A stretch of DNA of 64,000 nucleotides from Actinomycetota bacterium. GTDB taxonomy: Bacteria; Actinomycetota; UBA4738; HRBIN12. Location: contig JAJPHY010000054.1 of the NCBI GenBank assembly GCA_021325015.1, positions 8,523 through 72,522 of the forward strand, in the 5' to 3' direction. How positions within the stretch are numbered: position 1 is the first letter of the stretch; each line of letters opens with the position of its first letter. A model generated the notes under the pieces. The model was not told the DNA's origin. It was given only the letters and a program-made list of their open reading frames with translations, and did no database searches. This document shows positions 44,172-47,658 of this stretch, piece after piece. Position numbers and translations under genes: made by a program.

Positions 44172-44561
44172 ATGGCAACGACTGTGGCAGACCCGCTCGA
44201 TGCGGTGTTCGGGGCGCTCGCGGATCCGACGCGGAGGGCGATCCTCTCCCGTCTGGCGCAGGGGGAGGCGACCGTCACGGAGCTCGCCGCGCCGTTCAGC
44301 GTCTCGCAGCCGGCGATCTCGCGGCACCTCAAGGTGCTCGAGCACGCCGGGCTGATCTCCCGGACCCGGCGGGCCACCGCCCGCCTCAGCCACCTCCGGG
44401 CCGAGCCGCTCCGCGAGGCGACCGTGTGGCTTGCCGGCTATCGGAAGTTCTGGGAGGAGAGCTACGAGCGGCTCGACGAGCTGCTCGAGACCCTGCAGTC
44501 GCAGGGGCAGGAGACCGACCGATCGCGACCGAGCGATCCGGCAGGAAGGAGCACGACGTGA
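44172..44561 (+). CDS. ArsR/SmtB-family transcriptional regulator
   Basis: LADPTRRAILSRLAQGEATVTELAAPFSVSQPAISRHLKVLEHAGLI. Confidence 0.85.
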   Translation: MATTVADPLDAVFGALADPTRRAILSRLAQGEATVTELAAPFSVSQPAISRHLKVLEHAGLISRTRRATARLSHLRAEPLREATVWLAGYRKFWEESYERLDELLETLQSQGQETDRSRPSDPAGRSTT

Positions 44562-45040
44562 CCGAGATGCAGATCACCGCCGAGCCCGGGGTTCCGCAGA
44601 TCCTGACCTCGCGCGAGTTCGCCGCGCCGCGCGACCTGGTGTTCCGCGCGTTCACGGAGCCGGACCTGCTCGTCCAATGGCTCGGACCTCGCAGGTACAA
44701 GATGACGATCGACCGGTGGGACCTCCGGGACGGCGGCACGTATCGCTACGTCCACGCCGACGAGGCCGGCAACGAGTTCGGGTTCCACGGCGTGTTCCAC
44801 GGCGATCCCTCACCCGACGGCATCGTGCAGACGTTCGAGTTCGAGGGCGCTCCCGGCCACGTCTCGATGGACACGGCGACGTTCGAGGAACGGGACGGCA
44901 AGACGATCGTCCGCATCAACTCGGTATTTCAGTCGGTCCAGGCCCGCGACGCGATGGTCGATGCCGGCATGGCGAGCGGCATGAGCGAGGGGTACGAGCG
45001 CCTCGACGACCTGCTCGCCAGGCTGGTCGCGAACGGCTGA
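44558..45040 (+). CDS. SRPBCC / AHSA1-domain protein
   Basis: The GTG start overlaps the arsR stop (GTGA), with AGGAAGGAG 8 nt upstream. AHSA1-like fold sequence is present. Confidence 0.8.
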   Translation: MTEMQITAEPGVPQILTSREFAAPRDLVFRAFTEPDLLVQWLGPRRYKMTIDRWDLRDGGTYRYVHADEAGNEFGFHGVFHGDPSPDGIVQTFEFEGAPGHVSMDTATFEERDGKTIVRINSVFQSVQARDAMVDAGMASGMSEGYERLDDLLARLVANG

Positions 45041-45072
45041 AAGAGCCGCTGACCCCGGAAAGGGAGAGGACC

Positions 45073-45543
45073 ATGCAGAAGATCACACCGTGCCTGTGGT
45101 TCGACACCCAGGCCGAGGAGGCCGCGACCTTCTACGTCTCGCTGTTCGACGATGCGGAGGTGAAGAGCGTCCAGCACCTGGACGGGACCCCGAGCGGGGA
45201 CGACGTGGCGCTGGTGTCCTTCCGGCTGGAGGGTCAGGAGTTCACGGCGATCAACGGCGGGCCGCAGTTCCCGTTCACCGAGGCCGTCTCGTTCCAGGTC
45301 TCGTGCAAGGACCAGGCCGAGGTGGACCGGCTCTGGAGGGCGATCACCGCCGACGGGGGCGAGGAAGGGCAGTGCGGCTGGTGCAAGGACCGGTTCGGCC
45401 TGAGCTGGCAGATCATCCCCGATCGGATGGGCGAGCTCCTGGGCGATCCCGACCCCGAACGCGCCCAGCGCGCGATGCAGGCGATGCTCCAGATGCGGAA
45501 GATCGACGTCGCGGCGCTCGAGCGCGCGGCCGACGGTACCTGA
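45073..45543 (+). CDS. VOC (glyoxalase/bleomycin-resistance) superfamily protein, PhnB-like
   Basis: MQKITPCLWFDTQAEEAATFYVSLF...WCKDRFGLSWQI. Confidence 0.8.
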   Translation: MQKITPCLWFDTQAEEAATFYVSLFDDAEVKSVQHLDGTPSGDDVALVSFRLEGQEFTAINGGPQFPFTEAVSFQVSCKDQAEVDRLWRAITADGGEEGQCGWCKDRFGLSWQIIPDRMGELLGDPDPERAQRAMQAMLQMRKIDVAALERAADGT

Positions 45544-45573
45544 GGCCGGGGCCCGGGCTCCGGGGAGGGGTTC

Positions 45574-46365
45574 GTGGAGATCGAGGTCGGAGGGCTCCGG
45601 ATCGCATACGAGCGGCGGGGGAGCGGACCGCCGATCGTCCTGCTCCACGGCGGGCTGGCCGACCACCGCGACTGGGAACCTCAGCTCGAAGGGCTCTGTG
45701 ACGAGCTCACGGTCGTCGCCTGGGACGCGCCGGGATGCGGAGGCTCGGACGACCCGCCGCCGGCGTTCCGGTTCCCCGATTACGCGGAGGTGCTCGCCGG
45801 GTTCATCGAGGAGCTCGGGCTGGAGAGGCCACACGTGCTCGGGCTCTCGTGGGGTTCGACGCTCGCTCTGGAGCTCTACCGCCGGCGCCCCGATGTGCCG
45901 CGAACGCTGATCCTGGCGGCCGCCTACGCGGGCTGGGCGGGCTCCCTGCTGCCCGAGGTGGTCGAACGGCGAGTGGCCGACACGCTGGCAGAGCTCGAGA
46001 CCCTTCCACCGCAGGACTATGCGAGGACGTGGATCCCGACTTTGTTCACGGAGCGTGCGCCCGCCGGGCTCGTCGAACACTACCTGGGGGTGATGGCCCA
46101 GTTCCACCCCGCCGGGGTCCGACCGATGCTCCACGCGATGGCCGAGGCGGACCTGCGGGAGGTTCTGCCGACGATCGGGGTCCCCACGCTCCTGCTCTAC
46201 GGGGAGCTGGACGTTCGCTCACCGATCGACGTGGCCCGCCAGATGCAGGCGCGCATTCCCGGCTCCACCCTCGTGGTGCTCCCCAAGGTCGGCCACATGG
46301 GCAACCTCGAGACGCCGGAGGCGTTCAACGCCGCGGTGCGCGAGTTCCTCGCCCGCGGAGGTTAA
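45574..46365 (+). CDS. Alpha/beta-fold hydrolase
   Basis: HGGLADHRDWE, nucleophile elbow GLSWGS and C-terminal His (KVGHMGNLE). Confidence 0.85.
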   Translation: MEIEVGGLRIAYERRGSGPPIVLLHGGLADHRDWEPQLEGLCDELTVVAWDAPGCGGSDDPPPAFRFPDYAEVLAGFIEELGLERPHVLGLSWGSTLALELYRRRPDVPRTLILAAAYAGWAGSLLPEVVERRVADTLAELETLPPQDYARTWIPTLFTERAPAGLVEHYLGVMAQFHPAGVRPMLHAMAEADLREVLPTIGVPTLLLYGELDVRSPIDVARQMQARIPGSTLVVLPKVGHMGNLETPEAFNAAVREFLARGG

Positions 46366-46877
46366 GTCTTGCCGCCTCGCCCGGTTTCCTCCAGGATCCG
46401 GCGGAGCACGGGCAGGACGAGCCGGTCCTTCTCGCGGCCGGCGGCCTCCTTGGACCGGATGACGTCGGCGAGCGAGGCCACGTCCACGTCGACCCCCAGG
46501 ATCCTGAGGCGCACGGCGTCCCTCGAGACGTCCTCGTATCCGGCGGTCCCCGTCGGCTCGAACGTGATGTCGAGCCGGCCGTGATCGGTCACGAGGTTCC
46601 ACACCGCAGAGGCGGCGAGCGATCGCGCGTCGTGATCGAACGGGAGCCCCTCGGGTTTGTCGACCGTCCAGACCCGCGCATGCATCGCCTTCAACGCCTC
46701 CGAGAGCCGGCGGAGGTTCTCCTCGGTTCGGTCCGGCACGACGTCGACGTCGACCGTGACGTACGGGGACCCGTGGATCACCGCGGCGAAGCCGCCGATG
46801 AGGACGAACCGTACCCCGTGCTCTCGAAGGACGGCGAGGATCCGCTCGGGCGCGAGCTCGGGTTCAGGACCGACCAC
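46362..46877 (-). CDS. Minimal nucleotidyltransferase-fold protein (putative toxin partner)
   Basis: FVLIGGFAAVIHGSPYVTVDVDVVPD is an NTase GS...D.D-like motif. The GTG start overlaps the 3' end of the upstream XRE gene by 14 nt. Confidence 0.65.
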   Translation of the reverse strand: MVGPEPELAPERILAVLREHGVRFVLIGGFAAVIHGSPYVTVDVDVVPDRTEENLRRLSEALKAMHARVWTVDKPEGLPFDHDARSLAASAVWNLVTDHGRLDITFEPTGTAGYEDVSRDAVRLRILGVDVDVASLADVIRSKEAAGREKDRLVLPVLRRILEETGRGGKT

Positions 46878-47232
46878 GGCGGTGTTCCATTGCGGCCCGG
46901 CGGCTGCGAACCTCCATCGCAGCCCGGCCGGCGCGGGCGAACCGGAGGGCGGCCTGGTGCTGCCGCACGCGCTCGTCCACGCTCAGGCGCAGGTTGGCCC
47001 GGGCGGCCACCCAGTCGGAGTCATCGAGCGGGACGATCGTCGATCCGAGCTCGAAGCCGCAGGCGCGGACGAGCTCTCGAGCACGAGCCAGGCTCGGCTC
47101 CGTGCGACCCCGCTCGATCCTGGCGATCGCGGACTGGGTGGTTCCGACCCGCCGGGCGAGCTCGGCCTGCGTGAGGCCGGCCCGCCGGCGGGCTTCCCGG
47201 ATCAGGGCTCCCCCGATCATGTCAGGGATCAT
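46864..47232 (-). CDS. XRE-family HTH transcriptional regulator (putative antitoxin)
   Basis: LIREARRRAGLTQAELARRVGTTQSAIARIERGRTEPSLARARELVRACGFEL is an HTH_3 motif. This is the C-terminal 123 aa of ORF 46864..48672. Confidence 0.7.
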   Translation of the reverse strand: MIPDMIGGALIREARRRAGLTQAELARRVGTTQSAIARIERGRTEPSLARARELVRACGFELGSTIVPLDDSDWVAARANLRLSVDERVRQHQAALRFARAGRAAMEVRSRRAAMEHRRGRS

Positions 47233-47397
47233 AGCGGAATTGCTATGCCCTCGCGACCTCTGCCCAGCCGCGGCGATCTGGATCGAGCTCCGGCAGGTGT
47301 CGGGGGGGAGCGGCCGTGGTCCCCTGCCCCATCCGAGCGCAGCTCCTGAGGGTCGCCGCCCACCTGGCCGAGCCTGCATCCGGCTATCGTCTTCGGC

Positions 47398-47658
47398 ATG
47401 GAGACCTGGGACGCCCTTCGAGCCCGACGCAACGTGAGGAGCTACGCCGACCGCCCGATCGCCCCCGACGACCTCGAACGCATCCTGGAGGCGGCCCGTC
47501 GGAGCCCGTCCTCGATGAACCAGCAGGCGTGGGACTTCGTCGTCGTCACCGACCGAGTGCGCCGCGGCCGAATCGCCGGCCGTTCGACCGGGTCGTCCAT
47601 CGCGAGCGCTGGTCGTAACCCCCTCGGGCCGGCCGATCGACACCGGCCCCGGAGTTGA
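47398..47658 (+). pseudogene. Nitroreductase-family gene remnant (N-terminal ~55 aa conserved, then divergence and a stop at 86 aa)
   Basis: DALRARRNVRSYADRPIAPDDLERILEAARRSPSSMNQQAWDFVVVTD matches nitroreductase N-termini. Full-length enzymes are 180-220 aa. The downstream sequence belongs to a convergent gene. Confidence 0.5.

Follow-up and report, generated by a model that had tools for sequence, protein, structure and literature searches.

A conserved gene pair of an XRE-type helix-turn-helix protein and a MenT1-related nucleotidyltransferase in soil Actinomycetota resembles an autoregulated toxin-antitoxin cassette

In a stretch of 64,000 nucleotides from an Actinomycetota bacterium (GenBank assembly GCA_021325015.1, contig JAJPHY010000054.1, positions 8,523 to 72,522; hereafter the window, in whose own numbering coordinates are given), the gene for an XRE-family helix-turn-helix (HTH) protein overlaps the gene for a small nucleotidyltransferase (NTase). 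The two form a conserved, translationally coupled two-gene cassette. Sequence comparisons strongly support two further features, namely a conserved operator that overlaps the -10 box and covaries with the recognition helix of the HTH protein, and a remote homology of the NTase, with its NTase active site intact, to the toxin MenT1. We give somewhat better than even credence to the view that the pair is an autoregulated toxin-antitoxin cassette of the MenAT kind, in which toxicity, substrate and neutralisation would follow the known systems by analogy. The original prediction, drawn from the letters of the window alone, had seen in the pair a resemblance to toxin-antitoxin modules with MenT- or AbiEii-like NTases, and the fold, the profile homology and the conserved gene architecture described below agree with it.

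Both reading frames were found where they had been predicted, on the minus strand, which had been left unstated, and the 14-nt overlap between the stop codon of the HTH gene and the GTG start of the NTase gene was likewise confirmed (Table 1). The association is close to invariable, well beyond what chance would give: among 84 fetched loci of relatives (NTase identity 53-100%), a homologue of the HTH protein lies directly upstream on the same strand in 83, and the sole exception has no upstream DNA. An overlap of stop and start, 4-20 nt long, was seen in about 76 of these 83 loci, most frequently of 14 nt (34 loci) or 8 nt (22) and less so of 11 (6), 4 (6), 17 (4) or 20 nt (4). The overlapping HTH-then-NTase architecture, which had been read as the usual order of antitoxin first and toxin second, is conserved in the relatives, and the overlap in the window together with those across the loci therefore indicates that translation of the NTase is coupled to that of the HTH gene. 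Two small, co-directional and overlapping genes that are conserved as a pair are what a generic toxin-antitoxin module consists of. No second copy of either gene was found in the 64-kb window.

The HTH frame, whose stop codon ends at 46864, had been given as 123 aa; it comprises 123 codons with the stop included, i.e., 122 aa from the ATG at 47232, and the assignment of its product to HTH_3 stands. We favour the second ATG, at 47220, as the start because it matches the consensus M-x-G-G at the beginning of the family alignment, because the resulting 118-aa version was called in three of the four independent samples that hold the identical locus, and because of the promoter anatomy, the ATG at 47232 falling within both the -10-like hexamer and the operator.

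The operator, and with it autoregulation, is the best-supported part of the system. Its core, ATAGC-N6-GCTAT, occurs once in the window, against 0.00 occurrences expected from shuffles, and in 57 of the 84 loci it occupies the corresponding place immediately before the HTH gene, with no occurrence elsewhere in them; there is one copy per locus, except for two loci with two. Among 50 non-redundant loci, the TAT of the operator arm is at the same time part of a TAnnnT hexamer, whose end is 6 nt from the start codon in 31 loci and 7 nt from it in 12. As this spacing equals the usual distance between a -10 box and the transcription start, the mRNA of the two genes is probably leaderless, with the operator lying over the -10 box. 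A strict scan found no consensus sigma-70 promoter because a -35 element is absent, and the promoter is therefore assigned on the grounds of conservation. No intrinsic terminator was detected between the NTase gene and the hydrolase gene that converges on it, or near them, and no Rfam family in the region.

Operator and recognition helix change together. Fifty-eight loci with GTTQSAIAR-type recognition helices carry ATAGC/GCTAT, whereas loci with a GVSQ[SP]LVAR helix carry GATGCA-type repeats instead, and those with a GTSHAAISR helix carry GGTATC...GATACC, i.e., GGTATCAGAT(C)TGATACC. Autorepression by the HTH protein at the predicted operator is well supported by these patterns, and the protein would have the character of a DNA-binding, autoregulating antitoxin of a generic toxin-antitoxin module, the binding itself being predicted. 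The sub-clades with variant helices (loci L051, L052, L055, L057, L060, L063, L066, L069, L070 and L075; L061 and L079) offer a natural specificity-swap series. Tandem operator copies, or a full copy accompanied by a degenerate one, lie upstream of the HTH gene in L072 (4624-4663), L080 (4643-4681), L077 and L082, and may reflect cooperative binding.

For the NTase, MenT1 is the closest solved structure by two methods; it is also the top sequence match in the PDB (E=0.011) and the sole one below E=0.5. The protein has the bi-lobed fold of the MenT toxins, with an N-terminal beta-sheet NTase core and a C-terminal helical domain, and the loop of residues 34-40, before position 41, is the sole internal low-confidence segment of its model. 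A query with a 60-aa MenT1 fragment had given short fragments alone, and 57 full-length MenT1-like genes were recovered from a metagenome scan. When 85 family members were compared with these full-length proteins by hhalign, homology was returned with 97.4% probability (E=1.3e-11, 141 columns); against the N-terminal MenT1 fragments the probability was 94.2%.

The predicted 171-aa product was found as described, reading GGFAAVIHGS...TVDVDVV, and the catalytic Asp residues, whose absence the original prediction had named as decisive against it, are present and nearly invariant. Counted in 85 diverse NTase representatives, G28 is conserved in all 85, D43 in 80, D45 in 83 and D103 in 81, and in the C-terminal motif K143 is conserved in 83, R148 in 79 and D151 in 84. 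Position 41 is always Thr (81/85) or Ser (4/85). In the alignment with MenT1, T41 corresponds to T39, D43 to D41, D45 to D43, K143 to K137, R148 to R146 and D151 to D149. T39 is the phospho-acceptor of MenT1 (PMC10435456; PMC11375011), and Ser or Thr is found at this position of MenT toxins, two residues ahead of the first Asp, as T39 in MenT1 and S78 in MenT3 (PMC11375011; bioRxiv 10.64898/2026.01.19.700257). The catalytic carboxylates of MenT3 are D80, D82 and E146 (PMC11162799), the last of which would be the counterpart of D103 by role.

Existing family models come close to the window NTase and stop short of it. The nearest are those of uncharacterised minimal NTases, DUF2204 (19.3 bits, below the gathering threshold of 20.3) and DUF6036 (18.6 bits, threshold 23.6), which include TM1012 of T. 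maritima (PDB 2ewr); neither family has a described function or partner, we found no literature on DUF6036, and the sole mention of DUF2204 concerns an unrelated protein. The ANT(2'') model PF10706 scored 13.4 bits (E=0.086), below its cut-off of 21. When the models were run on 129 diverse relatives, with E<=0.01 taken as a match, DUF6036 was matched by 76, DUF2204 by 44, PF10706 by 23 (best E 8e-7) and the AbiEii/DUF1814 model PF08843 by 8 (best E 1.9e-6).

The family is large. There are 2,310 homologues of the NTase at E<=1e-3 in a database of clusters at 90% identity, the best 120 of which share 73-100% identity, have a length of about 165 aa and come mainly from metagenome-assembled genomes (MAGs) of Actinomycetota, and a profile search of representatives at 50% identity gave 9,780 clusters at E<=1e-3, 2,710 at E<=1e-10 and 180 at E<=1e-30. 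At least 493 relatives were confirmed in the species-representative genomes of GTDB. The hosts are mostly uncultured soil Actinomycetota, and the pairing is conserved across hundreds of soil bacterial genomes. What surrounds the pair is mostly unrelated from one locus to the next, as the 64 flanks compared on the upstream side sort into 40 groups and the 59 on the downstream side into 37, and the annotated neighbourhoods of relatives consist of ordinary chromosomal genes of many kinds. The pair is also plasmid-borne: one copy (WP_043416234.1 and WP_052429202.1) is carried by a 264-kb mobilisable plasmid (MOBF) of the cultured Mycolicibacterium rufum JCM 16372, where an IS110 transposase is encoded close by, and another by a megaplasmid of Miltoncostaea oceani; PGAP labels the plasmid copies “helix-turn-helix transcriptional regulator” and “hypothetical protein”. 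Varied contexts and plasmid copies agree with the mobility of a generic type II/VII toxin-antitoxin module.

In L067 (5001-5479) the HTH gene is intact, whereas the NTase frame next to it is broken, with tblastn matching it in two pieces that lie in different frames. Either decay of the putative toxin or an indel of the assembly may be responsible, in a MAG that we presume to have been assembled from long reads. A frameshift of this kind would fit toxin-antitoxin logic; as a single case it is not counted as evidence here.

The HTH protein has 1,571 homologues, typically of about 107 aa, and is strongly basic (isoelectric point, pI, about 11.6). Beyond the HTH domain it carries a C-terminal extension that is conserved to the same degree, with D70, L81, R88 and R97 invariant in the family alignment, and that has no Pfam or PDB sequence match. 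An origin of this domain from a MenA1-like protein was considered and rejected (hhalign probability 0.3%, and no MenA1 match in the PDB search). Models of HipB, MqsA and HigA match the HTH protein weakly, none at its threshold.

From these elements we propose the following scheme. The HTH protein would bind CATAGC-N6-GCTATG over the -10 box of a leaderless promoter and thereby repress its own bicistronic mRNA, from which the NTase would be translated by coupling, since the 14-nt overlap places its GTG start before the HTH gene ends. By analogy with known systems, free NTase may add nucleotides to the 3' ends of tRNAs and so block aminoacylation and growth, and the HTH protein may neutralise it by direct binding through the conserved C-terminal helices. 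Binding could also induce auto-phosphorylation of Thr41, as in MenA1/MenT1, MenA3/MenT3 and AbiEi/AbiEii (PMC11375011; bioRxiv 10.64898/2026.01.19.700257). Such a cassette might serve in the stabilisation of a plasmid or locus, in a stress response or in abortive infection.

The most instructive comparison is with MenAT1 of M. tuberculosis (Rv0078B-Rv0078A, DUF1814). Both NTases have the same GGFA-x10-T-x-D-V-D spacing and have in common a Thr at the phospho-acceptor position, two metal-binding Asp, a third carboxylate, the Lys and the R-x-x-D; both are small and acidic, and both follow a small basic partner gene that overlaps the start of the toxin gene. The two proteins are only about 22-24% identical, and the helical domain at the C terminus seems to be shorter in the window NTase: whereas MenT1 has 195 aa and a four-helix bundle in the crystal (PMC10435456), the window NTase has 171 aa and two C-terminal helices in its AlphaFold2 (AF2) model. 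The partners differ more strongly, being an XRE-HTH protein of 107-118 aa here and the 68-aa MenA1 there, which lacks a DNA-binding domain and does not autoregulate (PMC10435456; PMC11375011). In the metagenome loci, MenA1-like genes (about 68 aa) likewise lie upstream of MenT1-like genes, with a 4-nt overlap. Such pairs of a MenT1-like protein of about 200 aa with a 68-aa MenA1-like protein are common in soil and sediment metagenomes (at least 507 confirmed stretches; loci L096-L175), far more than the 21 menA1 homologues of an earlier report (PMC10435456).

AbiE (AbiEi-AbiEii) has the same gene order, with the antitoxin gene first and the NTase toxin second, and a related K..A...R...(R/K)D motif. 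AbiEi carries a DNA-binding winged HTH domain and autoregulates; its C-terminal domain is large, and it belongs to the winged-HTH proteins of COG5340 and not to those of the XRE-HTH type. The expectation in the original prediction that HTH antitoxins are established for NTase toxins holds for AbiEi. It is only partly true because MenA1, the antitoxin of MenT1, has no HTH (PMC10435456). AbiEii and the larger MenT toxins are members of PF08843 and are bigger (the chains of MenT3 and MenT4 have 290-292 residues), whereas the window NTase lies outside this family; antitoxin-induced auto-phosphorylation of the toxin has been reported for AbiE (bioRxiv 10.64898/2026.01.19.700257). With the type II systems that use XRE antitoxins (HigA, HipB, MqsA and the Xre of RES-Xre) the pair has in common the XRE/HTH_3 domain, a palindromic operator over the promoter and the antitoxin-first order; it differs in the family-specific C-terminal extension and in having an NTase in place of a kinase, RNase or RES enzyme.

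Several observations weigh against a toxin-antitoxin cassette. The window NTase has no match to PF08843 at E<=1, NCBIfam and PADLOC return nothing for it, and no curated toxin-antitoxin, defence or toxin model matches. D41A, K137A and D152A each abolish the toxicity of MenT1 (PMC10435456), and in the sequence-profile alignment D152 falls on V154 of the window NTase, where the family has A, V, T or Q, with D in only 7/85; either its role is dispensable or supplied elsewhere, or the chemistry or substrate is different. The annotated neighbourhoods of the examined loci contain no integrase near the pair, no phage-borne copies were found, the neighbouring genes are ordinary chromosomal ones, and the NTase is very well conserved (75-85% identity among 120 clusters). 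Covalent fusion of HTH protein and NTase, described below, is unusual for toxin-antitoxin pairs, and the C-terminal region of the HTH protein may owe its conservation simply to a role as a dimerisation domain.

A non-toxic enzyme that modifies an antibiotic or another xenobiotic, comparable to ANT(2'')-Ia and LnuA, with the XRE protein as its dedicated and perhaps substrate-released repressor, would account for part of these observations, and we regard it as unlikely. It would fit the matches to PF10706 among the 129 representatives, the soil actinomycete lineage of the host, the neighbours of a metabolic or detoxifying type (alpha/beta hydrolase, ArsR, nitroreductase remnant) and the missing D152 equivalent. 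The acidity of the enzyme (pI about 5) would fit too; as an argument against a toxin it was dropped, since MenT1-like toxins are equally acidic (median pI 5.14, against 5.16 in the NTase family). Against such an enzyme, both fold searches rank MenT1 higher than the resistance NTases, and among these proteins it alone was recovered by the PDB sequence-profile search, in which ANT(2'')-Ia and LnuA gave no significant match. Near-invariable overlap with, and repeated fusion to, an HTH protein bearing an extra conserved domain is atypical of resistance genes, and no translational coupling to an HTH partner is known for ANT(2'')-Ia or LnuA. The Thr or Ser at the MenT phospho-acceptor position is invariant, and the module occurs in dozens of unrelated contexts that are not biosynthetic or resistance clusters. 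The motif spacing before the DxD presumably differs in AadB. If the enzyme did act on small molecules, the family would be a widespread and regulated group of NTases with possible relevance to resistance.

Somewhat less likely again, in our estimate, is a two-part transcription-factor switch in which the NTase is a sensor or modifier that tunes DNA binding and not a toxin, either by binding a nucleotide or by nucleotidylating or phosphorylating itself or the HTH protein. It is the fusions that chiefly keep this possibility alive. Thirteen of the 129 family representatives are single chains of HTH domain, C-terminal extension and NTase, interspersed among unfused relatives, and one of them (P0320), the only fusion verified in two independent samples, has the same operator and -10 box upstream. 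As the fusions keep all three modules and the operator, they argue, on the toxin-antitoxin view too, for physical cooperation of HTH protein and NTase. Their frequency should be read with caution, as it is possibly inflated because cluster representatives may be the longest members. An AF2 model of another natural fusion (P0242), run without an alignment as a proxy for the complex, was unusable (pLDDT 42.8). The strong purifying selection on the family, its usual occurrence as a single copy and its ordinary chromosomal neighbourhoods also suit a switch, as does the strong support for the operator and autoregulation. Against it, the full catalytic set of an active polymerase-beta-type NTase is conserved, which argues for substrate turnover over mere ligand sensing, and MenT1, to which the NTase is closest among characterised proteins, is a genuine toxin (PMC10435456). 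A more specific and slightly less probable form would be a DNA-tethered enzymatic switch, in which the separate or fused NTase modifies its own Thr41 or the repressor according to nucleotide pools. Transcription from ATAGC-N6-GCTAT would then be coupled to nucleotide or energy status, and the proteins would represent a new class of one-component regulators built on a MenT-type fold.

We rejected, as very improbable, an MNT-type antitoxin or orphan minimal NTase of the HEPN/MNT (type VII) systems that adjoins an unrelated regulator by chance, given that, although the protein is a small minimal NTase with hG[GS]...DxD and MNT/HEPN pairs exist in related genomes (e.g., an NTP_transf_2/Polbeta gene 5.5 kb away in L087), the window NTase has no Pfam match to NTP_transf_2 or Polbeta, none of the examined loci has a HEPN gene next to the pair, the HTH protein is in every case the conserved partner, and fold and profile comparisons place the NTase with MenT1, TM1012 and ANT(2''), not with MNT. 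The MNT-type gene, which in one lineage lies a few kb downstream of the pair (L087 12101-12517, L088 6863-7279), is probably part of a separate HEPN/MNT module.

Returning to the MenAT-like toxin-antitoxin cassette, its toxin fold and general logic are already known, and diverse MenA antitoxins were to be expected. What is new here is an NTase subfamily near DUF6036, the type of antitoxin, an autoregulation that has no counterpart in MenAT1, the absence of a D152 equivalent, and the natural fusions. Our literature searches, including those on TM1012 and on AbiEii with XRE, found no description of an XRE-NTase toxin-antitoxin pair, and the NTase goes unrecognised by PGAP (“hypothetical”), PADLOC and NCBIfam. 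If it is a toxin, the MenT/AbiEii toxin superfamily would gain a large branch that lacks annotation, and its antitoxins, so far MenA1 and the MenA3/AbiEi type, a third and unrelated kind. As the phospho-acceptor Thr is kept while a residue essential in MenT1 is missing, the family would provide a natural test of the generality of antitoxin-induced auto-phosphorylation. The operon would in addition illustrate cleanly, and in conserved form, how an operator controls a leaderless actinobacterial promoter while covarying with the recognition helix, and the plasmid-borne pair of M. rufum JCM 16372 makes the family experimentally tractable.

Table 1. Features of the gene pair and of its surroundings, in window coordinates
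Feature	Positions	Strand	Remarks
NTase gene	46362-46877	minus	GTG start at 46877, 171 aa, contains LIGGFAAVIHGSPYVTVDVDVV; MenT1-like fold; putative toxin
XRE-family HTH gene	46864-47220	minus	118 aa from the likely start 47220, 122 aa from 47232; putative antitoxin and autorepressor
Overlap of HTH stop and NTase GTG start	46864-46877	minus	14 nt
Operator palindrome ATAGC-N6-GCTAT	47231-47246	none	with flanking C and G an 18-bp perfect palindrome, CATAGCaattccGCTATG, at 47230-47247
-10-like hexamer TATGAT	47228-47233	minus	fused to the right arm of the operator, 7 nt upstream of ATG 47220
HTH_3 DNA-binding domain	47050-47202	minus	residues 11-61 (122-aa numbering), Pfam E=1.6e-16; recognition helix GTTQSAIAR
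C-terminal helical extension of the HTH protein	46918-47031	minus	residues ~68-105, DDSDW..A..NL.L.VD.RVRQHQAALRFARAGR; candidate NTase-binding or dimerisation module
NTase motif G28-G29...T41-V-D43-V-D45	46743-46796	minus	hG[GS] motif, Thr at the MenT1 T39 phospho-acceptor position, two metal-binding Asp
D103 on the LDITF strand	46569-46571	minus	candidate third catalytic carboxylate; in MenT1-like proteins the aligned residue is the conserved D of VDLLF
C-terminal motif K143-EAAG-R148-E-K150-D151	46425-46451	minus	equivalent to K137...R146-P-Q-D149 of MenT1 and K..A...R...RD of AbiEii
Nitroreductase remnant	47398-47658	plus	PF00881 E=1e-14, profile positions 1-55 of 167 only
Block of ~2.4 kb between the NTase and Phosphodiest genes	44172-46365	plus	four open reading frames (ORFs), absent from L001
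ArsR-family regulator	44172-44561	plus	HTH_5 E=1.9e-16
SRPBCC-like ORF	ends 45040	plus	in the ArsR-to-hydrolase block
3-dmu-9_3-mt-like ORF	ends 45543	plus	in the ArsR-to-hydrolase block
Alpha/beta hydrolase	45574-46365	plus	convergent with the NTase gene

The immediate surroundings of the pair are variable. The decayed nitroreductase gene seen in the original prediction is real, being confined to the first third or so of the profile (Table 1); it is oriented divergently to the HTH gene and lies some 150 nt away from the operator. In the syntenic relative L001 the pair occupies the same locus, in the order HxlR, FAD/BBE, NmrA, pair and Phosphodiest, without the ArsR-to-hydrolase block and with an ORF for a 211-aa membrane-protein-like product in place of the nitroreductase remnant. 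The proposal of an accessory islet thus finds partial support only, as L001 has the pair in the same place and the genes right beside the pair differ. An ArsR gene beside one for an SRPBCC/COG3832 protein, as found in the block, is reportedly a pairing that was once proposed to be toxin-antitoxin-like. At the other end of the block, the stop codons of the NTase gene and of the hydrolase gene that converges on it overlap within TTAA at 46362-46365.

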